A stretch of 63,989 nt of DNA, filler included, from Diploschistes diacapsis (taxonomy: Eukaryota), in assembly GCA_023645945.1 (NCBI GenBank). It is 6 parts of 6 records of this genome, joined end to end, with 100 filler letters (N's around TTAATTAATTAA, not from the genome) between each part and the next. Parts side by side here need not be neighbours in the genome. Positions count along the whole stretch, not along the records: positions 1 to 29,600 come from JALAIB010000132.1; 5 more parts are not named here. One strand, written 5' to 3'. The notes under the pieces are model-generated. The model saw only the letters and a program-made list of their open reading frames with translations. It searched no databases and was not told where the DNA came from. The number at the start of each line of letters is the position of its first letter. Position 1 is the first letter of the stretch. Below are positions 5,941 through 58,147 of the stretch, one piece after another. Position numbers and translations under genes: made by a program.

Positions 5941-6912
5941 ACCTGGCTCTCCACAACCCGAAGAGCCTTGTTTCCAACAGCAGCGCGATGAGTCTACAGC
6001 TGTTCGATTGAGATGACGGGCTATCCAAAAGCCAAGGAAAGACTATGCTTACGTATGAGACTGAAGAGAACTGGAAGAGAGGGATCGAAAAAAACAGCTA
6101 TGAAGCATGCATCTTGAAAATAAGTCACCTAAGGGATAAGCTGGCCTCCTTCCTCTTTAATATAAGGAAGGAGCAAAGCATCACGACATTCACACTTGAC
6201 ATGTACTGCTTCAGAGATCTCTGCAGCCACAAGAGTCAAACAACGAGCAAAGTAGAACAAGAAGCGAACGGTTGAATTAAGGAAGCCACTTTACAGGATA
6301 TGAAAGAACGTATTTGTACTTGTACCGGGAATGGCAAACCTAGAACCGAGAAGCTGAGGACCATGCGTGATTATACGTATCGATAAAGGTGGAGCAACAA
6401 CATGCTGCCAAATGTAAAAGTGATCTCATCTCTTTGATCTCCTACCTCAATAAACGTGCTGTAGATCTGGCCTGTCTGTAACGGGCAATATTGAGTTTGA
6501 TAGTATAGAGGCTCGGCACAGGACGTCAAGTGTTAGTCTTGCTCCATATGGATATAGACCGATTAAATCAACTTGTTACACGATAGCTCCGTTTATGGCG
6601 CGCCCAGACTTTCCTAAAGCTCCACTAGCCAATCAGAAGACTTCGCCTCATAAGCTCCTACAGAACGCTCCCTTTCATGTTGCTGTTGAGATATGATTTA
6701 TCCGCAGGAAGGTGTGGCATTTTGGAGCAAGTTGCTACGAACCCACTCATTTGCACACATACAAGCAGTAGCATCTCTACGGGACAGGCCATCGTCAATA
6801 CATCCCGCTTCAGCTCCCAACCTTCAACTCTTCAAGTTGCATAAATCCGCCGCATCATCAACAATACCTCACCAAGCTACCCACAGCTTGAAGCGCAACC
6901 CGATCTCACACA

Positions 6913-9157: not shown

Positions 9158-11564
9158 TCTGCCTGTTAGTTGTCTAGCTTCCTTGCGAGATAGAGCCCCA
9201 AGCTGATCCGGTAGACGTAGCCTCTGCCAAGAAAATACATGTGTGCTTCCTCTTTGGGTTAGTGTATATAAACACGTCCTTAAATTTATACCTTGAACTT
9301 GGAGCTCTTATTTCAAGTGGCTATCACGAACCCTATAATGCAGAATCTCCACGAAACAGTCACTACTATGGCCTCTACAAAACAGTCGATATCTAATCTC
9401 GATGCTTGGGTACATTATTACAGAACGTGCGAGTCTGTGCAAGCACACAAAGTTTTATTATGAGGGATTGCAGCATACCATTCAAAAATATTTGCTTACA
9501 TCAATTAACATGCTTGGTCATGGATGAGAAGTTCATCTGCACAAGACCGGACATACGATCTTGGCATTCTTCGGGGGATTGCCTGTTATATTGTTACGTT
9601 TCGTGTTTTGAATGCCGCTTAAAGGCATCAGGTCTCACAAGGGCTTGTTAATGCCTTCCTTCCAGTCTTGTAGCGAGATGCTTACTCTGAACGACAGTAT
9701 CAGCCTTCGACAATGCTGCCGCCTGCTCCTAAAACATACCTCGGTGTGGTCTCCCAGAGGTACCGGCTGCTACGCACCAGGGCCCCCCTGATGAAACTTT
9801 GGAACCTGACCACTTCGTAAATTCGGGAGTATTGGGTTGTAGAGTGGAAGGCAATCTACAACCATCGAGCAATTTGTATCGTCTCCAGAGCTCTTTGCTA
9901 CCTTCCCTTCGCGATTAAATAATTGGTCGATACTGGTGTGCTTCGACTCTCCGATCATGGAGGCTTAATGGCCTCTCTCACTTATACGCGTACCGTTTCT
10001 ACCAGGGCTGGTGTCAGTAGGGTACAAGGAAAGAGACTCACGGTTGGTCAGGAGTCGTAGCGGAAGCACTTGCCTTCTTGTCGCTGTCATCTTTGTTGAC
10101 TAATTTCATTGTTGTAACTTAGGAGGTTTATCAGCTTCAAGTGAGTAGGTTCTTCTTTTGGATTGGCCTCACGTGCTCCGATTGAATGCAATTCGAACGC
10201 GTTAACAAGATTGGTGCTTATTATAGTAACAGAAATGAGCTTGTTGGTTTACCTAAATGAGGCTCGCTGTACCCGGCTAGAACATCCTGACGTACCTACC
10301 CCTAAATCGCAGGGCAAACCTTGAAATGATAAGATGAAGCTCAAGAAGTATGTGTTATGTTGAAGGAATAGCACTGGGATTCCGTCAACGACGCATCATA
10401 GTAGGTACAAAGTTATCCGCCAGAGCAAAGGTTAAGCCCGCACTTGGTCGACGCCACATAAGCAGGGGTCTTTTACCATATATCAAAAGTGTTTTTGTAG
10501 GGCAAAATACCCCTGCTGGTGTGGTGTGGCGTCTGGTGTGGCGTCGACTACCGCGGTGCTAACCTTTGTTCTGAGAGGTAACATAACTTGTACGTGCATG
10601 CATGCCACGCGAAAGACTTGTACAAATGGCGGTGGGTAGTCCACTCGCTATGGATGACGGCTGTGGCACTTACAACATAAGAGCTGTAAATTACAATTTC
10701 TTTTCAACGCTTGCAAGGCTAAAAAACGCTACAGCCCCCAGCCATGTCCAAATGTTAGCACAATATATTCGGTTTTTCCCAGGAATCGAGGCCAAAAGCA
10801 GGGACTGAGGCGCCAAGATATGCTGGGTAAGCTAACAGTTTGACACTGTCAAAGGCTCGTACGGAAGTCCGCCAAAATAAAAGGTTAGCGCTGATCAGTG
10901 CGCGCAGGCAGAAAGTTGAAAATTGCCAAGCACTTCATTTGATCTTCTTCTATCCTTTGATCCTTAATAGCGTCTTATTCAGGACGGGACGTTAGTGATG
11001 CTGGTTGGGGGCTGCTTCAGCTTTCCTTACAGAATCGAGTCCAGAAGACGGGATTGCGAAAGTCCGTTCCGGATGGAATTACGCACTGCTGCAGGATAAG
11101 CTTTAACCATTAACCTAGTCCACCACAGATGCATAGTATGCTACTTCTGCTAAGCCCAAGAAGTCATGACCATCCACAGCCAAATTAAAGAGGGCTGTGA
11201 TTCAGCGACTTGGCCTAAGGCAGCAAAATCCTTGCAGCCCTTCGTCCCGGATTGCCAGTCCTGCTAGTGAATTGAAGTGGCCCTGGGGTCACACGGCTGA
11301 CACGGCTGAATACTATGTGTAGGTAGGTACTCACAGGCAGAGTAACATTTTTCTTTACGCCCCCATCTTTCCAGTAATTTGAGCGCTTTTGGATTTCACG
11401 TTCCAGTACTACTCGTAGAGCCTTTCTCTCAAAATCAGCTTGTTCGAGGCTTGAAACCTCTTCTCGAAGTCCCATATCGTTGCATAGCGTATTCTATCTT
11501 CCTCTCTGTTTTACGTCGTTCTTGAACGCACTTTCTTGAAAGGCGGACACTGCCGGCAGTCGTC

Positions 11565-13415
11565 ATGTCTCTCTACGGTGATGGTCCCGTTGACGTCGAC
11601 CTCTACTACCTGAGGGTCCGCGAAGCGATACGGCAGTCATATCCAGCCATCAATCGAGGGCCACCGGAGATTCTACTTAGCAAACCACGGCCGCCGTCGG
11701 AATATTTTATAATACAGAATCCTGTGGACACTGAGACCGAACAAAAGCCGAATCAAAGCCTTCCACCGTCTCAACCTCGCAAGATCACAGGATGGGCTTG
11801 GGCCGTGCTTGTCACTGGCCTCGTTATGGCGAATCTCCTAATATCGATGGACAACACAATTGTTGCCGACATACAGGCGCCTATTATCGCTGAGCTAGGT
11901 GAGATCAACAAATTTCCTTGGATAAGTGTCGGATTCACGCTCGGTGCAGCGTCCGCAAACATCTTCTGGCAAGCTCTCCCTCGCTTCCGGGATGCCGAAG
12001 TTGTGCTAACTAGCTATGCACAGGGGCCAACTTCACAGGTACTTCGATAAGAAGGTCCTATTTCTGGTGGCTCTTACGATCTTTGAGGTTGGTTCAGCCG
12101 TTTGTGGATCCGCAAAGACCCTTGACCTGTTGATCGTCGGAAGAGTTATCTGCGGCCTCGGCGGAACTGGCGTATTCATGGGAGTCATGAATAACATCGC
12201 TGCTCTGACGACACCTGCGGAGCGAGCATTGTATGTCAGTTTTCCAGGTGCCGCCTGGGCAATCGGTGCTATGTAAGTATAATGGAGGTCACGTCTCTGA
12301 CCCAGCAGCTAAGAGATCCCAGCATTGGCCCTGTAGTTGGTGGTGCTATCAGTGACTCGCCTGCTGGCTGGAGGTGGTGTTTCTACCTCAACGTTGTCGT
12401 GGGTGGCATATGGCTGCCAGCATACGTTTTTATCTTGCCCTCGATTCCATCCAAGGGCGCTGGTCTCGCCATGTGGAAACGAATCAGTCGGCTCGACTGG
12501 CTCGGGTTTGCTCTCTGGAGCGGTTCCCTATCCTCTCTCGTCATGGGAATTTCATTCGGAGGCAGTCTTTACCCCTGGCAAGGCGCTGTTATCATTGCGC
12601 TATTCGCTGCCTCCGCTGGCCTTTGGATCATCTTCTTCCTGCAGCAGAGGTTCGCGATCCTGACCACGAAAGACGACCGCCTGTTCCCTGTCCATCTAAT
12701 AACCCGAGACCTAGCGTTACTTATTGCCCAGATGGCGTTCGGCGTGGCTTGCCTTTTCTTACCCTTGTACTTCATACCACTCTATTTCCAGTTCGTGAAG
12801 TCGGACACTGCCTTGATGGCCGGCGTGCATATCCTACCGTTTGTTCTCTGCTTCATCGTCCTCTTACTGATTAACGGTTCGGTGATGAGCAAAGCCGGGT
12901 TTTACATGCTCTGGTATATGATGGGCAGCGCGTTGGTCACCGTTGGTGCGGGGCTGATGCATCTGATTGGTCTCGAAAGCCCGGTGGGAATGGTTTATGG
13001 CTTCATCATCATCGTGGGCGCCGGAGCTGGCGCCTTCGTTCAAGCATCCTTCGGTGTTGCTCAAGCCAAGGTTGCCCCACAGAATGTGCCTATAGCCGTG
13101 GCGTTTATTGGTGCCGCTCAAATCACAGGCGTCACGATATGGTTCTCGGTAGCATATAGCGTGTTTCTAAACACAGCTACCAATCAAATCGCGGTCTTGT
13201 TACCTGGGGCGTCAACAAGCACCATACAGGCCGCCATCGCCGGTGTTGGTGGCAGCGTTTTTGACGGGCTCGACGCTGCAGCGAAGAAACAGATTCTCGA
13301 AGCTGTACTGACCTCCATCAGCTACGTATGGATTCAGGTTACGGTCAATGGCGGAATTTGCTTTATTCTCTCCCTGCTCATGAAACGCGAGCGCTTGGCC
13401 CCAAAAAAGAAGTAG
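11565..13415 (+). CDS. MFS drug:H+ antiporter (DHA2, 14-TM type), likely cluster exporter
   Basis: MDNTIVADIQ, FEVGSAVCGSA, IVGRVICGLGG, IGPVVGGA...WRWCFYLN; introns 11969-12023 (GC-AG) and 12273-12322. Confidence 0.93.
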
Positions 13416-14870
13416 GTTCTGGACATGTGCGCGGTATTCAGGCTATGGGGCCGGCAGACCTGCGCTTCGCATCCAATGAGAGCCGATCCGCGAGTCGGCA
13501 CTCTGGTAGAGTCAGTTACTGCTTTACTAGGATGGAACAATCTCAAGCCGGAGACCGGCCAATCTATTGTCTTGCAGCATTTGCTCTATGCATAAAGACA
13601 GAGCATGACAGATTGAAGAGAGGCGGATGCGGTACTGCGGTTAATGACTTAATGAAGAAATATATAGGCAGGTAATATAGAGGATGTCGTCGTTGTTAGC
13701 GAACATTGCGTGATCATTAGCGCTATGAAGCCGAGGGCTCAGACCTATGTTTCCGCCTATTGCCTAGCAACAGACGGGTATAGGTTCTTCATGTAGACTA
13801 TGAACTGACAGGCAACTGCTTTCTGTATAGGTTCTGGCTTTGAGATGCTCTGGAATGCAAAGTAAGCCCAAAAGTTCTCAGCGTAAAGCTGGAGCTACTT
13901 TGTTTCTACCAGAGCCGGTGCGGGTATGTGTATTCGCACCCACTCCGAGAAGCTCCGAAACATACGAGCTTCGAGTTGGGGAAGAAATAGATTACTCCAA
14001 ATTGCTACTCCCGCTAACTCCTGTCCTTTTCTCCCTCAGATGCACAGTGGAAAACGAGAACTAAATTCTGACTTTTGATGAGTATTAGAGCTTCTTGAGT
14101 GGGTGTAAAAAAACTAAGCGATCATCATGTGGCGTTCCCACTGTTCCTACTACTTTAGTATACCGTGTTCGTGTGGGGAATCGACTCGGGAAATCGGGAT
14201 CTGACACGTGCCGTCCTCCTAAGCACTAAGAAAGCTAATTATAAGCTAGTAGTACTAGCTAGTACTAGCTAGTACTGTACGCCAGAGACTACTACTACTA
14301 CTAGTAAGTCTACTACCCTTGCGGGAGAACTCCACCAAGGTTTGATTTCAATAATACTATGTATGTAAAACGTAATACGGTTGTCATAATTAGCCAAGGA
14401 ATGGGCCGTGTCGCGCTAGTCGGCGCTAGTCAGCGCCAGCCATACAAGCAGGGCGATCTTCCTTTATTCTGAGCCTCACTTCGCAAAGTAACGGTCTAGA
14501 CCTTCAAATTCGCACTCTTGACAATGCTGCTACTGTCCCGCCTGATGAACGTCAGCATCGTCGATGAGGATCCAAGATTATCCTTGTGCTACAACTTCAT
14601 TGCATTCAACGGTGGGACGGTGGGACGGTGGGACGTAGCAGTCAATTAGTGTCACGGTGATATCCAGATCCACAATAAGAATACTGGGTGAGATTTCCCA
14701 GCTGAAGTCTTGTCGAAGCTTGCTGTTTTGATGCCAGAAGCTGGCGTTGCTGACCATCCAAGCCCCGCATACAAGGTTTGGCCGATCAGTATATCGCTTG
14801 AGTCTCACTCTTGATAATAGAGAGTTTCCTTTTCAGCATTGATCCAGCTTTGCACAGCCCTCTTAGAAGC

Positions 14871-16273
14871 ATGACGGAGCTACGAAATGGCTTGTCTCGT
14901 CGTGGGAGAGAAAACTTGGAGGTTGTTTTGCCAAAGATCCTGGACCAGGTCAACGAACGAAGCAAGGCTAGTGCCACAGCCATCGACCTTGCTACAGCCG
15001 AAAACTATCTTTTACGGCCAGAAATGACCAGTATCTGCTGGAACGCTGTTGCCCAAAATCTACAGGCAGAGGCAAGTCGTTGCAATCCTTCAAGTGTCAA
15101 GCTTTTGACATTAGCCTAGCATCTATCGTATCCGAGGGGGTTCGCCGCCGATCCATATCTTCTGGCTGCTTTGGTCCCATTCATGAACTCTTATTTCGCT
15201 CCCAAGATACCGGTTACCCCTACTCATATAGCCACATCGCCCGGAGCTGCTAGCTGTCTTGATGCACTCTTGTATAATATCTGCGATGTAGGGGAGGGGA
15301 TATTGCTCCCTGGACCTTATTGGTGTATAGAACGGCTGTACCTACCCGCTTGTCACTAAGCTGACGACCTTCAGATGGATTTGACTTCTTCTTCCAAACG
15401 CGATCATCCGTGGTTCCTGTCGTGGCAGACTTGCCCAGTCTCTCCGATGCTTTCACCGAGGAGCTAGCTCCAGCATTGGAAAGAGCGTTCGACAAGGCCT
15501 CGTGTAGAATCCGGGCGGTGATCATAACTAATCCGCACAATCCCCTGGGACAGAGATACCCTCGCTCTGTTCTTGAGAGTTGCCTGGACTTCTGCAAAAA
15601 GCATGATCTTCACTTCATCTCCGACGAAGTCTATGCATTGACCTCCTTTGAGAGCCTCGACGTTCCGGATCCAGTACCTTTTGTATCCGCCTTGGCTCTG
15701 GACGTCAAAGGTCTGGGATGTGATCTGTCCAAAGTACACACCGTTTGGAGTCCGAGTAAGGACTTTGGTGAGAGCGGCTTTCGCATGGTATGCGGAATAC
15801 TCTTGCACAATTTAGTTTGCACAGTACTGACCAGTTAGGGCTGCATCGTCAGTCAGGCAAACCCCGACCTCATCAATGCATTGGCTTTGGCATCCTGTCG
15901 CCAAGTCTCGACAATGACGAACATCGTTGTGCGAGGAACTCTCCAGAGCGATTCCCTTAGCTTCCTGATCAAGACGAATCAGCAAAGATTAAAAGAAAAC
16001 TACGAGCTACTGCGAAACTTCCTAGTCTCGAAACAGATCCGATACATACCATGCTACGCCGGCTTGTTTGTCTTTGCTCAGTTCGTCAAAGACCCACAAA
16101 CACCGGACGCAGAAGCTGCCATGGTCCGTAAACTTGGCGATGCTGGCGTGCTGGTCTGTCCCGGAAGCGATTACCACCCACCAAAGTCAGAAAAGGGGTG
16201 GGTGCGCATCGTGTTTTCAATTGAAAAGGCGTTGCTGCAGGAGGCTATCCAGAGAATGGAGGCTGTATTTTAA
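14871..16273 (+). CDS. PLP-dependent fold-type I enzyme, ACC-synthase-like (aminotransferase class I/II, GliI-like), ~417 aa
   Basis: IDLATAENYL, ITNPHNPLG, FISDEVYA, WSPSKDFGESGFRMG (PLP Lys), GWVRIVF; introns 15072-15119 (GC-AG), 15325-15374, 15788-15838. Confidence 0.92.
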
Positions 16274-16959
16274 TGGGAGTGGATTCTGCCGCGAAGGGCC
16301 TCTTCAAGCTACCAAGGACCCTCCGAATTAAACTGTCTACGTGCTTTGTGAGTTATGTAGATAGGACCAAGTTTGCATGGTTAATGAGGATATTTTCACG
16401 AATGGTGTCGCTAGTATGGCATTGTCCATGATTTAATACTACTTTGCAAAATGCTCCGTCACCATAATGCGCAGCTGTCTACCTAGCTAGCGTCAAAACG
16501 GCGCATTCGGGAGGACGAAAACGGCCACAAGTATCCAGTATTTGGAATTGCATCACGAAAGGATTTGGGGAATTGCACCACGAAGCATTGAATTTAGTTC
16601 CCTGTATGGAAGAACCTCTCAATTTATAAAACGAAAGTAATCCCAGTCATTGCGCCATCCTTGGCCCATTCATGCCGACAGCCTGACCTCGGAATCTGCA
16701 ATGCTGCTCACCCGGTTTTGCCTACCTATATCTACCGTACTAAGCTACCTTTCCCAGGCAGCAGCCATCCATACCTTATATCTTATCACGCTAGAAGGGT
16801 TATAGATGGCGATTGATCTTACTTTACTTCTTTTAAGTATATCCATCATTCTCCATTGAAGTCAGATTTCAAAACGGCTGAGCTCAAGCCAACAATACTC
16901 GCTCTTGCAACCAATTTTTATCTTTCCCTCCAGCCCGTCCTGCAACACGGCACACGGCC

Positions 16960-18255
16960 ATGTCAACTGCCGAGACCCTCGATGCTAATGGGGCCAAGCT
17001 GCCCGAGGCAGTACTCGAAGCACTAGAATTCGAACGGGAGCAGTGGGCAAACGGACCGGCTTCTCAAGATCCCTTCTACAGTCTGGAAAGTTACTCTGGC
17101 CAAGAACCGCCGGGGACGCTTCTGAAGGTCGAAAAGGCTTGCAACACCAAGCTTTGGATGCTGCCACCGACCACAGCACTTTCACGTTTCGTCTACCAAT
17201 CCGAAACCTTGAACGCGAAACCTGTGCCTGTCTCAGGGTACATTCTTTGGCCGTATTCACCGCGTTCGTCCGAGGATGGATACCACGTTGTTGCCTTCGC
17301 GCATGGTACGACCGGTCTGGAGCCGAACTATGCACCCTCGAATACGAAGAACCTTGCCCATCACTTCATCCAACCTTATCAGCTCGCGCTACAGGGCTAC
17401 GTCGTGGTGGCAACAGACTACGCCGGGCTGGGCGTCTCAAAGGACTCTAATGGACAACGCATCGTGCATCCGTACGGCGCTCATCCTGCTCATGCCAATG
17501 ACGTTGTCTACTCGGTCCAGGCGGCGAGGGAGGCCTTCCCGGAACTTTCCAAACGTTTCGTAGTCGCGGGTTATTCGCAAGGCGGTGGAGCTGCATGGTC
17601 CGTGGCACAGCGGCAGGCGGCCTCGCCCATCGAAGGCTACCTTGGGGCGGTGGCGATCTGTCCCATAACCCGGATTCTCGAGTATCAGGAGCCTATTCGA
17701 TCGATCGTCATTGCAGCAGTCACTCCTGCCATCGAATCCATCTTGCCAGGATTCACGCAGGCCGAGATTCTCACGGAAGTTGGCCAGCAGACGCTTGCCC
17801 TGTGCCAACGGGCTGGAGCGTCGCTCACGACACTCCTCAGCCTGCTCGGCAAGGTACAGGCTCGCAAGGATGATGCCATTGGCAACGGCTTCCTTCGGGA
17901 GTTTCAAAGCCTGACTAGCAACGGCGGCAAGAAGATTGCAGGTCCACTGCTTGTCATCCAAGGCGAAAGCGATCCCATGGTGAACCATCCAGTTACCGAA
18001 AGGGCTGTGCGAGACACCATCACCAAGCATCCCGATGCTCAATTGGAGTACATCCTTGTCCCGGGCGTCGGACATAAGCCGGCCGTGTTCAGCACTCAAT
18101 GGATATGGACAGACTGGATAGCAGACCGATTCTCGGGGGCTCAGGCGACTTCAAAGGGCAGCCGCACTCTCAAGTCTGCACTTCCTCTACAGTCCTACCA
18201 ACCGGCGCTAAACTGGTGGCTTGCCCCAGAGACCAAATTCTACCATGCACCGTGA
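16960..18255 (+). CDS. LIP-family (secretory-lipase-like) alpha/beta hydrolase without an obvious signal peptide
   Basis: AHGTTG, GYVVVATDYAGLG, nucleophile GYSQGG, IQGESDPMV (Asp), GVGH (His); intronless, 431 aa. Confidence 0.88.
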   Translation: MSTAETLDANGAKLPEAVLEALEFEREQWANGPASQDPFYSLESYSGQEPPGTLLKVEKACNTKLWMLPPTTALSRFVYQSETLNAKPVPVSGYILWPYSPRSSEDGYHVVAFAHGTTGLEPNYAPSNTKNLAHHFIQPYQLALQGYVVVATDYAGLGVSKDSNGQRIVHPYGAHPAHANDVVYSVQAAREAFPELSKRFVVAGYSQGGGAAWSVAQRQAASPIEGYLGAVAICPITRILEYQEPIRSIVIAAVTPAIESILPGFTQAEILTEVGQQTLALCQRAGASLTTLLSLLGKVQARKDDAIGNGFLREFQSLTSNGGKKIAGPLLVIQGESDPMVNHPVTERAVRDTITKHPDAQLEYILVPGVGHKPAVFSTQWIWTDWIADRFSGAQATSKGSRTLKSALPLQSYQPALNWWLAPETKFYHAP

Positions 18256-19529
18256 AAGTGCATTTGTTTTTCGCTTGCGAAATTATAGCTGCGAAAGGGT
18301 CGGGAGACTTGGAATCAGACGAGAAAGGAACAGTAGTAGCCTGTTTTGTCACCACACACTTTCCTTCAGCGACGAGATTGTGAAAGCTGAGGCTGTCGGG
18401 GACTGCGGATCTCGGATCGGCGTTACATCCGGTTACAGTACGGTTTTGTTACGCCAACAGTACAAAACCATGTACGAAGCTAACATTCTTTTTTAACCGC
18501 GGACAAATACCGATTTTGGGGGCGGTCAAGGGCTCTGTTTCAGACTTGCTTTCGTTCCTTTTAGTATTAAGATCCACTTACAGAGGCTTTTTGACGTTTG
18601 CCCGAATTGCTAAGCGTGAGTACTTTGCACAGCCTCATGCCTGAGGTCCTGATGAGAAAAGACATACACAGGACAACTACCGACTTGCTTGCGGGCGAGT
18701 CGGCCTCCCAGCCTTGACCTGAGCTGATCATTGAACTGGGCTAAACAGGCATTCCTGCGACTCTTTGTGCTAAACTTCCCAGAGACAGCTAGCTTTGTTC
18801 AATCTCCGCACTAACAACTTTCCCAACACTACCCTTCTCGAAGCGGCATTTGAGAACGAGCCTTGGCAGTATCAAGCCATAGCCGCGACAAGTTGCGCAA
18901 CGAACAGCTGTTCACTCAGCAATGACTCATTCCCAACGCGAGTTACGGAGTTTCTGCAACAGCAACGATGCAACTTTGCAAACCTTGGTTGTGGCCCAGC
19001 CTCCAGCAGTCACCATTATACGCCGAGATGAGCTATCATCCAATGGCATAGGTCAATCAATTGAGCATGTTCATGGTCTTGAGACACAACTAACTGAACC
19101 TCCCTAAGGAATGAGATTGACAAGCTTTCGCCAAGGCCTCAAAGGCTCCTATTGAGAATCCATGCAGCTTACCCACTCTGTTCAAATTGGGCAAGGATGA
19201 GGGGGGGACGAACTTCGCCTGGCGTTAAGCTTCGGAAGAAGGTCTGCCCAGTAATGACGGGCAGCTTGCAGTCGCTGTGTTCCCAAGGGTTTCGAGTAAC
19301 TGGATCGATACTTTGTAACGCAGATCCATGAGCAGGCTGTTCCGCGTGGCCTGCACGTGGAAGGCGGATGCACAAAAGCCGAAAGAAGCTTATGGATGAT
19401 ATAGTTAGCTTTATATTCATGCCAGGAGCCAAAGCTATCACTCACACACACACTCTTTTCATATCCCATCTGGCTTTGGAATTTCCATTTTACTTTCCCC
19501 TTTTTTCTGAAACAACAGTCGCCTTCAAC

Positions 19530-22500
19530 ATGGCTTCTATGATCCCGGAAAGTATCGCCGTCGTTGGCATGAGCTGTCGGTTCCCGGGTGGGGCCAACGA
19601 CCCGGAAAAGTACTGGGAATTACTAGCAGAGGGCCGTGATGCTTGGTCCAAGGTGCCATCGACGAGATGGAACGAGGAAGCCTTCTACCATCCAGATCCT
19701 GGAATGAACGGTGCAACTAGTCATCGGGGAGGGTACTTCCTCGATCAAGACTTGAGCGCTTTCGACCCCTCCTTTTTCGGCATTTCTGGAGAAGAGGCAA
19801 AGGCCATGGACCCTCAGCAACGCGTTCAACTCGAGATAACCTACGAAGCTCTCGAAAATGCTGGCATCCCGATGGAAAAGCTTCCGGGCTCGAAAACGGC
19901 CGTATATATCGCCCTCTTCAGCCGTGACTATGACCGTATTGGATATAAGGATATTGGTGCCATGTCCAAGTATCACATGGTCGGGACAGGAGACGCTATC
20001 CTCTCCAATCGAATTTCATACGCCTTTGACCTGCGGGGTCCGTCGATGACCATTGACACTGGATGTTCAGGCAGCTTAGTTGGCCTGCATCAGGCTTGTC
20101 AGAGTCTTCGACTTGGCGAATCGAACTTGGCGCTTGTGGGTGCCAGCAACCTCATTTTATCCCCAGACCAGCTCATTCCCATGAGTCTTGCTCGGTAAGT
20201 CCGCAAATCTTTGATGACGCTTAAGCGCTAACCGTGCGCAGCTTCCTCAGCGACAAGGGACATTGTTATTCCTTTGACAGCCGTGGGGACGGCTACGGCA
20301 GAGGCGAGGGCGTGGCTATGGTCGTTCTCAAGCGGCTCAGCGATGCACTGGCCGCGGGGGACAACATTCGTGCCATTGTACGCAACACTGGGATCAACCA
20401 AGACGGGAAAACGCCAACAGGCATAACTGCTCCCAGTGCAGATGCACAGGCAGACTTGATCCGACAAGTCTACGCAGAAGCTCGGTTGGACCCCCGGGAT
20501 ACCACGTACCTGGAAGCACACGGAACCGGAACCAAAGTCGGCGACATGGCAGAATTTGAATCAACAAGGGACACCTTCCGCTGCAAAGATCGAGAGCGCT
20601 CCTTGATCCTTGGGTCGGTCAAATCAAGCATCGGACACTTGGAGTCGGCGTCTGGAATTGCAGGCTTGATCAAGACAGTCTTGATGTTTGAAAGGGGCTT
20701 CGTCGTGCCAAATCTGCATTATCGATCTCCGAAGCCGGACATTGACTACGATGCAAATAATATGAGGGTGACTCCGACCGCGTCGAGTGAACACAGAGCT
20801 TTTCTGACACATATTATTAGATTCCTAGCAAACTTCAGTCCCTAAAATCCATCACCGATGGGGTGCACCGAGCCTCCATCAACGGATTTGGATATGGCGG
20901 TGCCAACGGACATGTCATTCTAGATTCGAGTGCTTCACTGGGTTTGCAACAGCGAAACAGTTCACGTCGCAAAAACCTTCACGGTAAACATTCTCATGTT
21001 AACGGCATCACCGAGGGTACGGCCAACGGAACTTCCTACAACAAACGATCTACAAATGGCTCTTCTCACTCGGATCAAGCGAACGGCTTCGGCCACTTGA
21101 TAACCTTTACCGCCAAGTCTGAGGCTTCGCTACGCCAAATGCTCAAGAACTTTGGAGCATGGGCGGATGGACGAGAGATTACGGAAGAAGATCTCGTGAA
21201 CCTCTCGTATACACTTTGTGCGCGAAGGTCAATCTTCCCTTGGAGGAGCAGTGTTCTTGTCCAAGATTCGGACGAGCTCAGACAAGCACTGGGTGGAAAC
21301 GACATGGCCATTACCAAGTCTTCGAGCAATCCACGCGTCACCTTTGTCTTTACAGGTCAAGGTGCGCAATGGACTGGAATGGGGCGAGAACTTCTCCAGG
21401 TCGAGTCCGAGTTCGGCAACTCGCTCAGGAAATCTGACAGTATTTTGCGGGGACTGGGCGCTGAGTATTGCCTCATCGAAGAACTTGAAATGGAGGAGCC
21501 TGAATCGCGACTGAATGAAAGCTGGCTGGCCCAGCCTGCATCAACTGCACTACAGATTGCTTTGGTGGACTTGCTGCGCCAACTGGGTGTTAAGCCGACC
21601 ATGGTGCTTGGCCACTCCAGTGGTGAGATTGCAGGAGCGTATGCTGTCGGGGCTCTATCGCATCACTCGGCGCTCAAAGCCTCTTACGAAAGGAGTGCTC
21701 TGGCTGCCATCTCCCGGAAAGTTTTGGGAAAGAAAGGCGCGATGATGGCAGTAGGCCTGGGAGAAGAAGACACCTTATCTTACATGACTGGACTGGAGCC
21801 CGGCTCGGCGACTATAGCCTGCGTGAACAGCCCTTCCAGCGTCACTGTCTCGGGTGATGATAGCGCAATACGCGCGCTGAAGGAGTTATTGGATGCCAAA
21901 TCCGTCTTTGCTCGGCAACTCAAGGTCGACACCGCCTACCACTCTCATCACATGCAAGAAATTGCCGATATATACTTTCAGGCCATGGGCGAGCTAGAAT
22001 CCAAGGATGCAAAGGTCCCATTCGTCTCCTCGGTCACCATGAAGGCAAAAACTAGGGGCTTTGGAGCCTCTTACTGGGTTCAGAACCTTGTTTCACCGGT
22101 CAGGTTCTCAGATGCGCTGGCTGAGGCTTCAAGATCAGGCGCAACGACGAACTCGACAACCACCTACATCGAAATAGGACCTCACTCTGCCCTGCTTGGT
22201 CCCATACGCCAAACTCTTGCTGCTGCTGCGTCAGGTACGGCTTTCAAATATGTCCCAACGTTGCTCCGTAACAAGAACGCCGTTGGCTCCATCCTGGAAT
22301 CGGCAGGGAAACTCTTCGACGGTGGCCACGGGGTGGATCTTCGCTCCATGCACGGTTTGGGAGGTTACGAAGGCAAACGTCTCCTGCTAAACGATTTGCC
22401 AACTTATTCATGGGATCGTTCCAATCACTACTGGCGCGAGTCTCGCCTCAGTCGAGACCATCGCTTCCGAAAGCATGCCTACCACGACTTGCTGGGGGTC

Positions 22501-25500
22501 AGAGTCGTGGACACTGCGCCTACCGAGCCAGCTTGGAGACATTTCATTTCGCTCGACTCCCATCCTTGGCTGAGCGACCATGTTATTGAGAAAGCTATGA
22601 TCTTCCCTGGCGCTGGCTATCTATGCATGGCCCTCGAAGGCCTCAAGCAGCTTGCTGAGGAGCAAGGCCTACACGCGAGGATGTCCAGATTCATCTTCCG
22701 CGATGTCTCGTTCTTGAAGGCATTGATCATCCCTGAAAACAAACAGCGGGTTGAAATGATCATGAGCTTCGCCTCCAGAGAGGTGACAAGCGAGAAGGAC
22801 ATGCTGGGATGGGAAGATTTCCGTATCCGAACCATTACACCTGACGGAGCCTGGTCGGATCTCTGCAAGGGCCGCATCGCTCTGGAGCTCGACGAACTTA
22901 CTGGAAGCGGCGATTTCGAATCCCAGCAGCAATGGGTGAATCGTGATCAGGTCAACCTTTTCAATAGCGTTGCCAGCGCTTGCTCAAACAGTGCGGTTCT
23001 GAATACGCACTACTCAGAATGTGAGGCAGCTGGAAATGTCTACGGGCCGTTATTCGCCTTGGTGGAGGATTTGAAGATTGCCGGGTCATCTGCCTTGGCC
23101 AAGGTCACTGCTCCAGATGTTGCATCCATTATGCCATACCGCCATATGAGTCCTCATTTAATTCACCCAACGACTCTTGACAATATCATACAGATAAGTC
23201 TTCCTCTGTTCTACCGTGTCTGCACAAAAGGCGCTGCCATGCCAGTCTACATTGAAGAGATCGTGCTTTCAGCCGCACAAAGCAGCAACCTGGGTTCAGC
23301 TCACGAGGTTGCATGTGTATTGAATGCAGCTGGGCAGCGATCCGGATTCGCTGATTTTGTAGCCGTGCAACGAGGACTGCAAGGTCAGGTTCTCCCTACG
23401 GTCATGATCAAAAGCCAAGAGCTGAGGGGCCTTGGGGATATCTCTGCATCAGGAGATGCTGAGGAACGGCCTGAGAGCATGGTTTCCAGGATGGAATGGC
23501 GGCCTGACATTTCTCTTGGTGATTTCCAGAAAGTCATTCCCATCAAGAACTCGGAAGAGGTCAGCACCGGTACACTATCGCTTGCCCGGAAAGACATTCG
23601 TCTTGAGCAGGTTACTGCTCTGTATATGGATACGGTTGTCAAAGATTTGGCAGCGTCCCAAGCGCCTGTTACAAAGCCCCATCTTCGCCAGCTTCTGGCG
23701 TGGATGAAGACGTATCTCGAGTCCGATAATGCCCAGAATCTTCTTAAGATGGCGGATGCTTCGACGCAAGATCTGCTGCACGATGAGGATGGAGAGCTGG
23801 GCATCGAAGGCGAAGCCACCATCCGCCTTGGCCAGCTTCTTTCTCAGGTTTTGACTGGCGAAACCGAGCCGCTATCCGTACTGCTTCAAGAAAACATGCT
23901 GTACCGTCTTTACGCCGATGATGCCACTACGATCTGTGACAATCACTTACAGACCTACCTGAAGCATCTTACCTTCAAGAAGCCCTATCTAAAGGTCCTT
24001 GAAATTGGTGCTGGAACTGGAGAAACCAGTTTGTCGCTCCTTCAAGCCCACTCAGCAAATTCAAACCTTTACTTCAGCCGCTATGATTACACTGATATTT
24101 CTTCCGGTTTCTTCGAAAACGCAAAGACCAAGTTTGCGCAATGGGCCGATATCATGCGCTTCAAGACTCTCAACGCTGAGAAGGACCCGGCCACCCAAGG
24201 ATTCGAAGAGGAAGCCTACGATCTGATCATTGCTTCGAATGTGATTCACGCCACGAGTTCCGTCAGCACCGCGCTCAAGCATGTCTCTAAGCTACTGAAG
24301 CCAAACGGGCAATTCTGTCTCCTGGAAATGACAAGACTGCACCCCTACTGTATGCTAGTGTACGGTGTGCTTCCAGGTTGGTGGGCGGGCTCAGAGGATG
24401 GTCGGGACGCCGGGCCGCTCCTCACCACAGAACAGTGGTCTTCCAGGCTGGCGGCAGTCGGCCTCGACCTCCACTACACCATCGACGATGTGACTGGTCA
24501 AGGCCACAGGTCTTCCCTTCTCATTAGCGACAAAGTCCCCGCGATCACTAGCCAAAGTCTACCAAGGATTCGCATTATCGATGACAAACAGTCGGATAGC
24601 TTGATCCCAAGTCTAGCGACCAGCCTGCTGGAGCAGTTTGCGGCCAAAGGACTCGTTGCTTCTATGTGCGATTGGCCAACGAATGCCGAGGTCGACGACT
24701 CAATTTACGTTGTGCTGGATGTTAACAGAAAGCCCGTGATCCGAAGCACGCTCGGTCAGTATCGATGCGCCTCGTATCTCTTAACCAAGGCTACTCGCAT
24801 GCTCTGGATTGCCGGTGGTCTGGACGAAAGAGCGGAACTGGAAGGTGCGCGCGGGCTGGCAACTGGCGTGGTCAGGACTGCTCGCTCGGAAAATGACGAT
24901 CTCAAAGCTGCGCTGCTGACACTGGAGCCGGACGCTCTCTCCGGTCCCAGCAATATCTCATCGGCTGCCTATGATATCATCTCAAGCGTGTTCGCAGACT
25001 CCGAGAAGGGCGATAGAGATGTAGATTACATACTTCGTGATGGTAAGCTCTTCATCCCAAGAATGCTTCCGGAGCAGCGAATGAACAAATTGGCCCTTGT
25101 CAAGAGTAAGCCAACCATGGAAGTTGCTCCGTTTCATCGAGATGGTCTTCCGCTCAAGCTTGGCATTGAGAAGATTGGCCTACTTGATACGTTGAGCTTC
25201 TTTGAGGACACTGATGTTGTAGAAAACGGCCTCAAACCCGATGAGGTGCAAATCCAGGTCTTCGCCTGCGGTGTCAATTTCAAAGACGTCTTCGTAGCGT
25301 TGGGTCAAATGAAGGCTACGACAAACATGACTGGCGAGTGCGCCGGAGTCATCGCCAAGGTTGGATCCGACGTCCCAGGCACCGTCAAAGTCGGCGACCG
25401 CGTGTGCGCCCTCAACGCCACGCCTTATGCCAGCATGGCTCGCGTCCATTATCAGAACACTGCGCCTATCCCGGAATCTATGCCCTTCACCACGGCTGCT

Positions 25501-28500
25501 TCCATACCCATCGTGTTTGCAACTGCGTACGAAGGCTTGATTAACGTAGCTCGTCTCTCGGCAGGGCAGAGTGTTTTGATTCCGTCTGCTAGCGGTGGCG
25601 TCGGTCAGGCCGCGATTCAAATTGCTAGACATGTTGGCGCAAACATCTTCGCTACCGTCGGTAGCAACGCCAAGCGTCAATTGCTCATCGACCAATTCCG
25701 CATTAATCCCGACCACATCTTCTCCAGCCGATCGCGGCGTTTCAAGGAAGGTCTGATGCACTTGACCCAAGGTCAAGGCGTGGACGTTGTCCTCAACTCG
25801 ACTTCCGGAGAGATGCTGGCTGATATGTGGAGCTGCCTGGCGTCCTTCGGTACGTTTGTGGAGATTGGGAAGACCGACATCTACAAAAAGGGTAACCTCA
25901 ACATGGGCAGATTCGACGATAACGTGACCTTCGCGGCCGTTGACCTGAGTCTCATGGGCAAGCACAAACAGCCGCGAGTAAATGTCCTGTTGTCTCAGGT
26001 CATGGAAATGTTTGCAGCCGGACACCTCTCTCCCGCCGATCCCACTACCGTCATGGAGCTCGGGGATATCGAGAAAGCCTTCCGATTGATTCAAGCGCGC
26101 AAGCACACTGGCAAGATCGTGCTCGACGCAAGCCTCGGCGTGAAGGTAAAGACGGTGCGGGAAGAAAAGACAGCGCCGCTAAAACTACGTGCTGATGGCA
26201 CTTACATCATCACCGGTGGTTTAGGAGATCTTGCCGGACACATGTCCAGGTCTATGGCCAAGCATGGCGCTGGAAACATCGTACTCCTGTCAAGGAGAGC
26301 CATCGAGGCAGCGCGAGAGGAGAGTTTAAAGAACGAGTTCAAGTCTATGGGCGCTAATCTGCATATCATGCGAGGAGATGTTACCTCTCGAGGCAGTCTC
26401 GCCAAGGTGATCGACTTTTGCAGGGCGAACCTGCCTCCCATTAGGGGTCTTATCCAGGGGGCTATGGTTCTCAAGGTAAGGTCGGTATTGCAATCAGTGA
26501 TCTGGCTAATATTTTGTAGGATGACATGCTGGTCAACATGACCATGGAGAACTTCGAAGCGGCCTTGAAGCCCAAGGTCGACGGAACCAAGAACCTGCTT
26601 GCTGCTCTTGACGGTCTTAAGTTGGATTTCTTCCTCTGTCTCTCTTCACTGGCCAGTATTATCGGCACCTCTGGCCAAGCTAATTATGTTGCCGCAAACA
26701 CCTACATGGACTACCTGGCTCACACCTGTCCAAATTCCGACATCCCCGTCGTCGCGCTCAATGTGGGCATGTTGGAAGACTCAAACGTCATTGCCGGACA
26801 CCAAGATATCATCACCAACCTGTTGAGAATGGGATACGCTCCGCTCAAAGTACAAGAATTCATCTCGTTCGTCGAGTACCTTATCAAGCCGGAGAACTTT
26901 GGCAAGACGGGCAAGCAAATCGCTATCGGAGCTAACGGCGCTTCCCTGTCTGTCAACCCCATCGTGGGCAAGCACGCCATGTTCCGTGCTCTGCGGAACG
27001 AGGCGGAAGACCAATTGGCTACTGCCGCCAACCAAGGATTCAAGGATATAAAAGACGTGATCCTTCCCGGCATGGACGCACAGCAGGTGTCAGAGATCAT
27101 CCACAACGCTGTCAAGGGGAAAATAGCAACTCTGCTGGCGATTAAGGACGAGGAGATTGACGACGATTGTCCTATCCGGGAACTAGGAATGGATTCATTG
27201 ATCACGATCGAGTTGAAGAACTGGGTCACTGGTAAGTTCCAGGCAAATCTGGTGACAAGCGAGATCATCGATGCTGGCAATCTATCTGCGTTGACGGGCA
27301 TGGTTGCTTCAAAGTCGGAATTGGTTAAGGAGAAGGAGAGCAGGGAGGGCAAGGAAGCCAAGGGCGAGGAGAAGGCTACTGTTCAGGAGACGAAGAAGCC
27401 AGTGGTTAAACATGATGAGGGGAAGACTCTCAAGCAGCAAGGAGTCAAACCGCAAGATATGAAGTTGCAGGAAACTCGACGAGAGCGATTCAAACAACAG
27501 GACGTACAGAAGTACACAGGTCTTACACTCTCGGAAGTTGGACTCACGGACCAAGGGCTGCCGAACATGCCTTTGCCCGAACTTCAAGCGACCATGAACT
27601 TCTTCTCCAACTCGGTCGGGCACTTCTGCTCGACATCCGAGCAAGTCAAGCTGCAAGCGGAAATCGATGATTTCCTTCACCCTGGCGGTGCTGGAGAGGA
27701 GTTGCAATCTCGACTTGTTGCTCGTATGGACGATCCTACAATCGAAGAATGGCAGAATCAGCTTTACGTCGACTATGTATACATGCGCGTGCGACCTCCA
27801 GTCTATCCTTTCCAAGCGTTCTCAAGCTGGTTCTTAGAGACCAGGCCACGGCATACGCAAGCCGAGCGTGCAGCAATCATGACAGTCACCGCAGCAGCCT
27901 TTGATAAGAAGCTCAAGATGGGACTAGTCAAGACGGATATTCTGAACGACGAGCCTCTGGATATGTCGACGTCGCGGTGGATCTTTGGATCTGTTCGCGA
28001 GCCGCACACGGGAGTGGACGTCGCGCGCAAATACGAGTGCCATGACCACATAGCCGTTCTGAGAAAGGGACATGTGTTCAAGGTAATGCTGAAGCGCGAC
28101 GATGGGCAGGACGTAGGGTTCGGAGAGCTCAAGGCAACATTCGGGGACATTCTTTCGATGCCTTTGGACGAATCTGAATCTGTGGCTGTCCTAACCGGCA
28201 CAGATAGAAATGACTGGGCCATGGTGAGTTCAGCGTAATCTGGATGACATTTTTCAACAATACATTTAAGCTAACATCAACAGATCCGCTCTGACTTCAT
28301 CTCCTCTTCCTCCCCCAACGCCAGCCTCCTCCAAACGGTCGAGTCCGCTACTTTCGCCGTTTGTCTAGATGATGCCCGCCCCTCTACCCCAACTGAGGCA
28401 GCGAACCACTTCCTCCTGCAGGGCTCTGCGAACCGCTGGTCCGACAAGGTAACCCAGCTCATAATCTGCGCAAACAGCATGAGCGGCGCAACATGGGAGC

Positions 28501-29537
28501 ATTCGCTCGTCGACGGCTCGTCTATCGGACAGCTCAACGTTGCCCTGGGGCACTGCACCATCGGCGACCTGCCCAAGACATACGGCTCTGAGACTCCCGC
28601 GCCTTGCACGCATCTTCAATTCTCTCTCACTCCATCAATCACACAATCAGTCCAGCTAGCCCACAAGCTAGCCCTCGAGAATGCCGAAACATTCGCCTGC
28701 GAAACCCTCTCCCTCGCCCTCCCTTCAATGGGCAACACCTTCTTCCGCAAATTCGGCCTTTCCGGCAAAATCGGCCTGCAGCTCCTCATCCAGCTAGCGT
28801 CTCGGTTCTACTTCGGCACCGACCAACCGCCCTCGTACGAGACCGTCACCATGCGCTCCTTCAAGGGCGGACGAGTCGACATCGCGCAGACACTTCAAGC
28901 GCACGTCAAGGAATGGTGCGACGCCGCCGCCCAGGAGTACGGCTCCTACTTCACCCAGGCCATCGCCAGCACCATGGCCGGCGAGCGGGGCATCACGGAT
29001 AAACAGTTCGCCGTCTCTGACGCTGCCGTCGCCGCTGCTGCTGCGACGGGCGCGGCGGCCGGCCGCATCAAGGCCATCTTCCTCGCCGCAGCGCGCGAAC
29101 ACGCGAGCAACATCTCGCGCGTCTCGCGCGGCCACGGCTTCGCGGGGCACCTGTACGCGCTGCAGGAAATGCACGCCGCCTCTGCCTCTGCTGCCGCCGG
29201 TTCCAGCTCTTCCACGGCCACTGCCACGTCTATCGGCCCCGGTACAGAAGCCGCCGTCGACGACACCCTCCCGCTGCTCTTCCGGCCCGGCAGCACGTTC
29301 TGGCGCACGCGCCCGAGCCGGTTGATGACAGATTCGGGGCCGCGATTTGAGATCAAGGGCGAGGTGGAGAACCAGGCGGGGTATACGATGCCGGTGCGGG
29401 ACATGGTGTTTGTGCACTACGATGCGAGGGCGGAGGAGGGCGTTGTGTTTGTGAAGGCGCCGAGGGGACAGGCAGGGCTGGTGGGCGCGGCGGTCGAGGC
29501 GGCAAGGAGGGTGGTGGGGGACGTTCTTAATAGTTGA
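19530..29537 (+). CDS. Highly reducing iterative type I PKS, KS-AT-DH-cMT-ER-KR-ACP-carnitine acyltransferase, ~3267 aa
   Basis: KS DTGCSGS/EAHGTGT/GHLE; AT GHSSG, AYHSHH; DH DHVIEKAMIFP, HPTTLD; cMT LEIGAGTG, NVIHAT; ER SASGGVG; KR TGGLGDL, GQANYVAAN; ACP LGMDSL; cAT WEHSLVDG. Introns 20195-20241, 20768-20820, 26476-26519, 28224-28283 restore one frame. Confidence 0.96.
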
Positions 29538-29600
29538 CGGGCTTAGGGTTGTGAGGGATAGTTGGCGAGCGATACCTGTTTCTGGGGGGAGGGGATGTTC

Positions 29601-29700
29601 NNNNNNNNNNNNNNNNNNNNNNNNNNNNNNNNNNNNNNNNNNNNTTAATTAATTAANNNNNNNNNNNNNNNNNNNNNNNNNNNNNNNNNNNNNNNNNNNN
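29601..29700. other. Artificial contig spacer
   Basis: N44-TTAATTAATTAA-N44, with stops in all six frames. Confidence 0.98.
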
Positions 29701-36768: not shown

Positions 36769-36868
36769 NNNNNNNNNNNNNNNNNNNNNNNNNNNNNNNN
36801 NNNNNNNNNNNNTTAATTAATTAANNNNNNNNNNNNNNNNNNNNNNNNNNNNNNNNNNNNNNNNNNNN
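36769..36868. other. Artificial contig spacer
   Basis: N44-TTAATTAATTAA-N44. Confidence 0.98.
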
Positions 36869-43872: not shown

Positions 43873-43972
43873 NNNNNNNNNNNNNNNNNNNNNNNNNNNN
43901 NNNNNNNNNNNNNNNNTTAATTAATTAANNNNNNNNNNNNNNNNNNNNNNNNNNNNNNNNNNNNNNNNNNNN
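43873..43972. other. Artificial contig spacer
   Basis: N44-TTAATTAATTAA-N44. Confidence 0.98.
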
Positions 43973-50961: not shown

Positions 50962-51061
50962 NNNNNNNNNNNNNNNNNNNNNNNNNNNNNNNNNNNNNNN
51001 NNNNNTTAATTAATTAANNNNNNNNNNNNNNNNNNNNNNNNNNNNNNNNNNNNNNNNNNNN
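50962..51061. other. Artificial contig spacer
   Basis: N44-TTAATTAATTAA-N44. Confidence 0.98.
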
Positions 51062-58047: not shown

Positions 58048-58147
58048 NNNNNNNNNNNNNNNNNNNNNNNNNNNNNNNNNNNNNNNNNNNNTTAATTAAT
58101 TAANNNNNNNNNNNNNNNNNNNNNNNNNNNNNNNNNNNNNNNNNNNN
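58048..58147. other. Artificial contig spacer
   Basis: N44-TTAATTAATTAA-N44. Confidence 0.98.

Follow-up and report, generated by a model that had tools for sequence, protein, structure and literature searches.

The locus analyzed here raises two questions, namely, what product is released by an HR-PKS that terminates in a carnitine acyltransferase (cAT) domain, and whether the genes that precede it, in particular that for a PLP enzyme, belong to the same pathway. The window, that is, the whole stretch of 63,989 nucleotides from Diploschistes diacapsis that was analyzed, consists of six contigs joined by N spacers, and the locus lies on the first of these (1-29600); the remaining five contigs contain housekeeping-type genes only. 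The 5' part of the first contig (1-11.5 kb) encompasses an eIF5A-like gene, PET191, OST48 and a 998-aa ORF without an assigned family. It is followed, at 11565-29537, by four intact fungal genes, all on the + strand, in agreement with the sequence-only reading, which had described four co-oriented genes after a housekeeping block:

11565..13415, + strand: MFS transporter gene, 581 aa, 3 exons (11565-11968, 12024-12272, 12323-13415)
14871..16273, + strand: class-I PLP enzyme, 417 aa, 4 exons (14871-15071, 15120-15324, 15375-15787, 15839-16273)
16960..18255, + strand: LIP-family alpha/beta hydrolase (esterase/lipase-like; Pfam), 431 aa, single exon
19530..29537, + strand: HR-PKS-cAT gene, 3,267 aa, 5 exons (19530-20194, 20242-20767, 20821-26475, 26520-28223, 28284-29537)
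29601..29700, no strand: N spacer, marking the contig end

The gene models are open frames without stops for all four genes, with splicing at GT-AG junctions or, for two introns, at putative GC-AG junctions; the splice sites of the MFS gene, including the inferred GC-AG boundaries of its intron 1, were derived from frame continuity only, and its last exon matches Pfam MFS_1 (4.9e-09). The entire 10.4-29.6 kb region is also contained in run X2, from a second sample, at a divergence of roughly 1.4-4%; among the 12 indels listed, of the 72 that separate X2 from the contig, every one falls outside exons. With the last base of the PKS stop codon at 29537 and that of the contig at 29600, the contig finishes 63 bp past the stop, the very distance that had been noted earlier; the locus is cut off at the end of the PKS. 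Neither a transcription factor nor a further tailoring gene was found on the contig by Pfam.

In the HR-PKS, Pfam matches delineate the domain order KS-AT-DH-cMT-ER-KR-ACP-cAT on a single open spliced frame; these matches and the open spliced frames bear out the gene content and PKS domain order that had been read from the sequence alone:

19548..20767, + strand: KS domain, spanning intron 1 (ketoacyl-synt 1.3e-67, Ketoacyl-synt_C 5.7e-38)
21340..22314, + strand: AT domain (Acyl_transf_1 1.2e-60)
22483..23346, + strand: DH domain (PKS_DH_N 1.1e-17, PS-DH 4.3e-14)
23977..24471, + strand: C-methyltransferase domain (Methyltransf_12 4e-17, Methyltransf_23)
25234..26124, + strand: ER domain (ADH_N, ADH_zinc_N, ADH_zinc_N_2 2.5e-17)
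26197..26777, + strand: KR domain, spanning intron 3 (KR 4.4e-22 and 2e-23)
27081..27344, + strand: ACP domain (ACP_SdgA_C 2.2e-15, PP-binding 3.6e-08)
27567..29447, + strand: cAT domain, spanning intron 4 (Carn_acyltransf 1.3e-40 and 1.6e-47)

The start of the PKS was set at 19530 because the KS domain begins directly after this position; an in-frame ATG at 19368, upstream of the chosen one, is a possible alternative start. The translation contains what we take to be the characteristic motifs of the KS (Cys/His/His), AT (GHSSG), DH (His), cMT (EIGAGTG), ER (GGVGQAA), KR (Tyr in NYVAAN) and ACP (GMDSL) domains. The search for PKS homologs used residues 650-1050 only (the DH-cMT region), so that the identities obtained are values for a poorly conserved stretch: the best non-self match is 41% identical in this region and the others are at most 31% identical, and no close ortholog was found in the searched collection with this query. 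The nearest database relatives are themselves cAT-PKSs, and PF00755 is present in 7 of the 15 non-self matches.

The predicted catalytic His of the cAT domain is located in the sequence WEHSLVDG, which aligns with FEHSWGDG of CPT2; among 7 other PKS-cAT C-termini, the His is kept, with the motif taking the form EH(T/A/S)xxDG in four and NHSQIDG in three. Elsewhere in the domain, YET..GRV is aligned against YES..GRT of CPT2; these positions are presumably the carnitine-carboxylate contacts, which look altered in this cAT. Two Ala/Ser-rich low-complexity inserts interrupt the domain, and we count them as a difference from the known cAT-PKSs. When prokaryote genome contigs were scanned with the cAT alignment for fungal contaminants, no PKS-cAT context was found; among 80 of 192 loci, the scan yielded actinomycete acyltransferase-like genes only, with 25-31% identity.

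A terminal cAT domain is already known from other HR-PKSs, as had been noted earlier for Tv6-931 and SdnO, and published excerpts (PMC10901484, PMC8582187, PMC9146135) corroborate this. According to these excerpts, cAT domains off-load chains to polyols (Tv6-931), glucinol (LtbA) or water (PMC10901484), the sordarin and AF-toxin PKSs likewise bear a cAT (PMC8582187), and the lichen cAT-PKSs constitute group R-IX (PMC9146135). Compared by description, Tv6-931, LtbA (luteodienoside A), MaPKS17a, SdnO, the AF-toxin PKS and the R-IX enzymes have the same domain order as the protein analyzed here. The gene neighborhoods differ: in the ltb cluster, as described in the excerpt of PMC10901484, the neighbors are a glycosyltransferase, a methyltransferase and a transporter, whereas the present PKS is accompanied by a PLP enzyme resembling GliI and by an esterase of the LIP family.

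With moderate confidence, we interpret the region as an orphan, truncated PKS-cAT locus of an ascomycete lichen mycobiont, whose reduced, methylated polyketide would leave the enzyme esterified to a hydroxyl acceptor. The PKS would make a reduced, C-methylated chain, and the cAT domain would pass this chain to a hydroxyl acceptor, by analogy with Tv6-931 (polyols) and LtbA (glucinol). Lichens are rich in polyols and, because these compounds are so plentiful there, a polyol or sugar ester would be the likeliest product. The putatively cytosolic LIP-family esterase may hydrolyze, edit or transfer the ester, and the MFS protein may export the product. Literature searches found no characterized pathway that combines a PKS-cAT, a PLP enzyme, a hydrolase and an MFS protein, in line with the earlier remark that this gene combination was not recognized from such a pathway.

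The role of the PLP enzyme within such a pathway is less straightforward. The sequence-only reading had suggested that this enzyme may produce an unusual amine or amino acid, possibly ACC derived from SAM, that is then acylated by the cAT. The exons of the PLP gene match Pfam Aminotran_1_2 (1.1e-15 and 3.5e-07), and the closest solved structures are compatible with that suggestion: the best relatives of the central exon are plant ACC synthases (such as 7dlw and 1iax; E 1.5e-17 over 137 aa), with alignment across the PLP-lysine region, and the nearest solved relative of the enzyme is plant ACS7. The 38 PDB sequences that match the enzyme are ACC synthases, aminotransferases and C-S lyases, with no alpha-oxoamine synthase (AONS/KBL/SPT type) among them; with plant ACS as the best match, the earlier assignment to the ACC-synthase/GliI type is upheld. 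A fumonisin- or sphingofungin-type alpha-oxoamine synthase thus finds no support among these matches (0/38). Several homologs of the PLP enzyme, furthermore, carry the database name ACC synthase, which also favors the production of ACC; the same name was initially given by automatic annotation to GliI itself, a PLP-dependent C-S lyase, according to an excerpt of a review on ETPs (PMC10086836).

The fungal homologs place the enzyme differently. Its PLP-lysine motif reads WSPSKDFGESGFRMG, the form in the GliI family being SxSKDFGxxGFR, and its highest identity to a fungal homolog is 57% over 411 aa. All close relatives are fungal and are either found in an ETP context or come from a context that is not known. 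In a tree of 54 rows, built by a quick search without bootstraps and with no proven ACC synthase among the rows, the enzyme falls inside a 39-row clade (SH-aLRT 97) that contains all 11 ETP-context rows and, within it, in a 21-row group (SH-aLRT 92) with 6 ETP-context rows; a closer sister is unsupported. Judging from these sequence relationships, the PLP enzyme is, by descent, a homolog of the GliI-type C-S lyases and not a demonstrated ACC synthase: its similarity to the plant ACC synthases is distant, and its descent lies instead with fungal proteins from C-S lyase contexts. With GliI (the twin C-S lyase of gliotoxin and other ETPs, with the homologs SirI, AtaI, Spd16 and Glv2), it shares fold type I and the lysine motif. 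It differs from that family in its identity of at most 57% to the homologs found, in its long end branch (0.61 versus a median of 0.27), in the change of 8 of the 91 family columns that are conserved at 93% or more, and in being adjoined by a PKS-cAT and a lipase-like hydrolase rather than by ETP genes. The remaining 83 columns are kept, that is, 91% compared with 92-99% in the 11 closest aligned relatives.

Among 20 comparable metagenome loci (length of at least 6 kb, PLP protein at least 39% identical), 16 carry ETP marker genes beside the PLP homolog, and homologs in the clade adjoin genes for an NRPS, a GliT-like reductase, an M19 dipeptidase, a GST, an O-methyltransferase and an ABC transporter. 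In this stretch, the PLP gene is not located in an ETP cluster; ten ETP marker proteins gave no match to the stretch at E<=1e-6 and, when relics were sought on the contig at E<=5, nothing better than E 0.04 appeared. Pfam searches across the rest of the window likewise detected no ETP gene. Conversely, a relative of the PKS, the cAT or the hydrolase was found at none of the 79 loci of PLP homologs, so that the check for co-conservation of the PLP gene with the PKS leans negative; this test is weak because no close PKS ortholog was found in the searched collection. Taken with the grouping of the enzyme among ETP-context proteins and with the excerpt of PMC10901484, in which all reported cAT acceptors are hydroxyl compounds or water, whereas ACC has no hydroxyl, the lack of co-conservation leaves unsupported the proposal that the enzyme provides the cAT with ACC or an amine, and we consider this proposal highly improbable. 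That the PLP gene works in the PKS-cAT pathway in some capacity is, in our estimate, close to an even chance, tilting slightly toward doubt.

The absence of relatives at the 79 loci is also what would be expected if the four genes were chance neighbors, such that the biosynthetic unit is the PKS alone, perhaps with the MFS transporter, the PLP gene represents a GliI paralog left stranded, with a different role or none, and the hydrolase serves general cellular functions as an esterase. The long end branch and the slightly lower share of conserved columns in the PLP enzyme point in the same direction, as does the hydrolase family. The hydrolase ORF matches Pfam Hydrolase_4 (1.2e-10) and LIP (5.1e-10; 39.6 bits versus a cut-off of 23), and its Atlas neighbors are LIP-family clusters. 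The nearest solved structure is the bacterial LIP-family (PF03583) esterase 3h2g (E 3.5e-10), with which the nucleophile elbow GYSQGG aligns, although only the N-terminal half of the hydrolase is covered by the alignment. Among 8,000 candidates scored, 1,269 homologs were detected at E<=0.001; the 119 non-self matches listed are 48-60% identical, with values evenly around 50% across the ascomycete classes. Such a spread is as compatible with an esterase of general cellular function as with a pathway enzyme. When the sequence is inspected by eye, the N-terminus of the hydrolase seems hydrophilic and a signal peptide is not apparent. Literature searches turned up no characterized member of this fungal subfamily. 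In favor of the ester reading, an hrPKS and an alpha/beta hydrolase of Fusarium jointly release the product, according to an excerpt of PMC11441467.

In Byssothecium and Xylographa, the homologs of the PLP enzyme and of the hydrolase are on different contigs and therefore are not neighbors, which again agrees with a fortuitous association. Elsewhere, one PLP homolog and one hydrolase homolog are each listed on a contig of 17,991 bases, a possible co-location to which we give no weight. A fortuitous association also agrees with the regions upstream of the four genes, in which no common promoter motif was found: no 8-mer is common to all four, nothing exceeds shuffles at k>=8, and the four 7-mers that are common to all, against 0.8 expected from mononucleotide shuffles, do not amount to a motif beyond chance. 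CGG..CCG sites are present upstream of only two of these genes, those for the MFS transporter and the PKS. Several features argue against chance: the four genes share one orientation, lie close together and are separate from the housekeeping block; the PLP gene is intact, with its lysine motif and most of the family columns preserved; the contig lacks any relic of an ETP cluster even under the most permissive threshold; and we know of no housekeeping role for GliI-type enzymes. We regard an accidental assemblage as rather unlikely.

If the PLP enzyme does take part, its descent suggests a different chemistry from that proposed earlier, whereby it would act as a C-S lyase in the polyketide pathway, cleaving a cysteine or glutathione adduct to a thiol and thus giving rise to a sulfur-bearing polyketide ester. 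Such a function would be consistent with the nested position of the enzyme among homologs of ETP-cluster C-S lyases, with the activity of GliI as given in the excerpt of PMC10086836, and with the placement of an intact PLP gene directly between cluster-type genes. The enzymes expected to accompany it are missing: genes for a GST, a gamma-glutamyl cyclotransferase or an M19 dipeptidase were detected in none of the six contigs by Pfam and marker searches, although GST or peptidase genes could exist 3' of the PKS because the region downstream of it is missing. Literature searches yielded no polyketide pathway that employs a GliI-type lyase, and the co-conservation result weighs against this role as well; we deem it improbable.

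The preferred reading, a PKS-cAT locus that would form a polyketide ester, adds to a small and recently opened class of enzymes. For HR-PKSs with a terminal cAT domain, only a few products and acceptors (polyols, glucinol, water) are known and, although lichen mycobionts possess cAT-PKS genes (group R-IX), a product has been assigned to none of these. The locus analyzed here provides an intact, highly divergent example of a PKS-cAT from a lichen sample. Its two neighbors, the lipase-like esterase and the PLP enzyme of the GliI type, were not found in the described characterized cAT clusters. If the PLP enzyme does not participate, the locus is another orphan PKS cluster; if it does, C-S lyase chemistry would be tied to polyketides. 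A more specific scenario, in which a lyase of the GliI clade left the ETP pathway and was recruited by a lichen fungus for the biosynthesis of a reduced polyketide, such that the PKS-cAT product, or its cysteine or glutathione adduct, is converted to a thiol-bearing polyketide ester, strikes us as distinctly improbable but, if true, it would represent the first use of the GliI-type lyase family beyond diketopiperazine chemistry.

The window (63,989 bases) consists of six contigs; at each joint, runs of N flank the linker TTAATTAATTAA. Eukaryotic (fungal) genes with introns are present on all six; the introns are spliceosomal and the genes have fungal relatives. The first contig (1-29600) carries the locus of interest, and on the remaining five Pfam detected only genes of housekeeping type. 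Domains were called by Pfam on long open frames, and introns were set by splice consensus and frame continuity.

Features of the window and Pfam domains of the four-gene locus
3046-6042, minus strand: open frame of 998 aa within the housekeeping block, without a Pfam match
11565-13415, plus strand: MFS gene, 581 aa, 3 exons; MFS_1
14871-16273, plus strand: PLP enzyme gene, 417 aa, 4 exons; Aminotran_1_2 on two exons
16960-18255, plus strand: hydrolase gene, 431 aa, 1 exon; Hydrolase_4, LIP and other alpha/beta-hydrolase models
19530-29537, plus strand: PKS gene, 3,267 aa, 5 exons; KS, AT, DH, cMT, ER, KR, ACP, Carn_acyltransf
29601-29700, 36769-36868, 43873-43972, 50962-51061, 58048-58147: joints between contigs (N runs)

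The upstream neighbors of the four genes are an eIF5A-like gene, PET191, OST48 and the unassigned 998-aa ORF. None of the four spliced models contains an internal stop; the first introns of the adjacent MFS (11969-12023, GCAAGC) and PLP (15072-15119, GCAAGT) genes appear to need GC-AG ends for an open frame. Each domain named in the sequence-only reading was recovered by Pfam, which confirms that observation, and the contig indeed ends (29600) 63 bp past the PKS stop codon (29537). In sequencing run X1, labeled a lichen metagenome and probably the source, a 29,561-base contig is identical to the stretch compared. In run X2, from another study, short contigs span the interval of about 10.4 to 29.6 kb in all 30 of its bins, with roughly 1.4-4% differences, and the 12 indels shown, of 72, all lie outside exons. 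Run X2 thus places this locus in another sample, from the same species or one very close to it; as evidence, this does not extend to evolutionary co-conservation. A 38-bp stretch (10536-10573), probably a small dispersed repeat, is matched in both runs by several otherwise unrelated contigs with loose ends on either side.

The largest gene encodes a PKS with strong matches to KS (1.3e-67 and 5.7e-38), AT (1.2e-60), KR (4.4e-22 and 2e-23) and ACP (2.2e-15), along with DH, cMT and ER, and with Carn_acyltransf split over two matches (1.3e-40 and 1.6e-47). Motifs in the translation, read against the generally known definitions for these domains, suggest that all are competent. A homologue search with the DH-cMT region retrieved 16 of 6,934 candidates at E<=0.001, namely the window's own ORF, one protein 41% identical and others at most 31% identical; 7 of the 15 non-self matches, including proteins of Squamulea, Rhypophila, Biscogniauxia, Camillea and Sclerotinia, contain PF00755. 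The PKS is thus a member of the cAT-PKS group that lacks a close orthologue in the collection searched. In the cAT alignment, WEHSLVDG is matched to FEHSWGDG of CPT2, so that the catalytic histidine is kept, as it is at the matching position of other PKS-cAT proteins. The YES..GRT stretch of CPT2, which binds the carnitine carboxylate, is replaced by YET..GRV, in line with a non-carnitine acceptor. The cAT domain is interrupted at about 28.9-29.2 kb by two low-complexity inserts rich in Ala and Ser, about 30 and 26 residues long, that are absent from seven compared PKS-cAT proteins; local G+C around them is about 58%. Proteins resembling carnitine acyltransferases, 25-31% identical to the fungal cAT, are encoded by many actinomycetes, for the most part Nocardia and Pseudonocardiaceae (192 stretches confirmed).

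By analogy with characterized cAT-PKS relatives, the polyketide would be released as an ester with a hydroxyl acceptor, for which a polyol is a natural guess in a lichen. The earlier proposal, in which the cAT acylates an unusual amino acid or amine made by the PLP enzyme, would require N-acylation, whereas the cAT acceptors described in the cited literature are hydroxyl groups or water. In the cited sections, Tv6-931 releases its chain to polyols and then recaptures it, the cAT of MaPKS17a catalyzes hydrolysis, glucinol is the acceptor for LtbA, and a cAT is also terminal in the sordarin and AF-toxin PKSs (PMC10901484; PMC8582187). Among reducing PKSs of lichen fungi, group R-IX is described with an optional Carn domain and, in the portion cited, no assigned product (PMC9146135).

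The hydrolase has 1,269 homologues at E<=0.001 among 8,000 candidates scored. The non-self matches listed (n=119) are 48-60% identical and come from many ascomycete classes, with numerous lichen formers; LIP-family clusters are its neighbors in Atlas, and the nearest solved structure, esterase 3h2g, aligns across the GYSQGG elbow. A family so widespread and evenly conserved may consist of general esterases and not of pathway enzymes; as candidate members, the esterase and the MFS protein would nevertheless fit a PKS-cAT pathway. The PLP and hydrolase homologues of Byssothecium and Xylographa lie on contigs of different size and hence are not neighbors. For two further homologues, P0018 (PLP; 52% over 285 aa) and P0065 (LIP hydrolase; 55%), the longest contig is 17,991 bases in both cases, and their genes may adjoin in another organism.

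The central exon of the PLP gene retrieved 46 of 425 candidates at E<=0.001, the top match being 64% identical over that exon; the best full-length homologue, from Melanomma, is 57% identical. The source names of the homologues differ (ACC synthase, aminotransferase, GliI). Among solved structures, plant ACC synthases match best (E 1.5e-17), and none of the 38 PDB matches is an alpha-oxoamine synthase, so the initial typing as an ACC-synthase/GliI-type enzyme was right. GliI, a PLP-dependent C-S lyase, was itself first annotated as an ACC synthase, according to the cited part of PMC10086836.

Metagenome contigs were scanned with an alignment of 16 PLP homologues, yielding 111 stretches that encode a relative, the best 80 of which represent 79 distinct loci. 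In tblastn searches with the window's proteins, the PLP gene was recovered in all 79; 19 of these loci reach 12 kb or more in length with a PLP identity of 39% or higher. A relative of the hydrolase, PKS or cAT was found in 0 of 79, and these loci give no sign of co-conservation of the PLP gene with the PKS. A weak MFS match (28%) occurs in three identical loci only, and other window ORFs of at least 70 aa have no match in any of the loci. The neighbors of the homologues (Pfam, 149 ORFs, ten long loci) include NRPS modules, ABC transporters, O-methyltransferases, M19 dipeptidases, GST, P450s, MBOAT_2 and GliT-like pyridine-nucleotide disulfide oxidoreductases; this is the make-up of a gliotoxin-type (ETP) cluster. 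With ten ORFs from such loci as markers, 16 of 20 loci (at least 6 kb, PLP at least 39% identical) contain one or more marker types, and 15 contain several; after collapsing near-copies, there are about nine distinct ETP contexts versus two others. Zero markers were found in loci L017, L019, L020 and L021, which form a separate subclade of GliI-like genes outside ETP clusters and show that the family left ETP contexts more than once. Scanned neighbors in the last three are an AMP-binding enzyme, MFS, cyclase, M20 peptidase and GMC oxidoreductase. The window has no ETP markers; on its first contig, searched at E<=5, the best match reached only E 0.04.

The PLP tree (quick IQ-TREE search, LG+G4, support by SH-aLRT only) was built on 54 rows, made up of the window, 22 of the named proteins among the 46 matches, and 31 loci, after omission of loci covering fewer than 330 query residues (41 of 79) and seven near-duplicates. 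The window's enzyme falls inside a 39-row clade (SH-aLRT 97) that contains all 11 ETP-context rows and, within it, in a 21-row group (SH-aLRT 92) with six of these; no closer sister is resolved in this tree. Its terminal branch measures 0.61 (median 0.27), and of 91 highly conserved columns it retains 83 (91%), compared with 92-99% in the 11 closest aligned relatives and 68-81% in three divergent members. Given this placement, the long branch, the retained columns and the lack of markers, the enzyme belongs to the GliI-type clade, is intact, has evolved somewhat fast and stands outside an ETP context. ACC synthase activity, and with it the proposal that this enzyme makes ACC, gains no support from the phylogeny.

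The identification of a PKS-cAT secondary-metabolite locus is secure, and the locus joins the known HR-PKS-cAT class. The PLP gene may encode a tailoring enzyme recruited to the pathway, acting as a C-S lyase on a thiol adduct or as an aminotransferase, or it may be a stranded paralogue; neither co-conservation (79 loci) nor a shared promoter motif upstream of the four genes was found that would decide between the two. The sequence-only reading did not recognize the combination from a characterized pathway, and in open-access full text we likewise found none that pairs a cAT-PKS with a GliI/ACC-synthase-like enzyme. If the PLP gene takes part, the locus would represent a new variant of the HR-PKS-cAT pathway.
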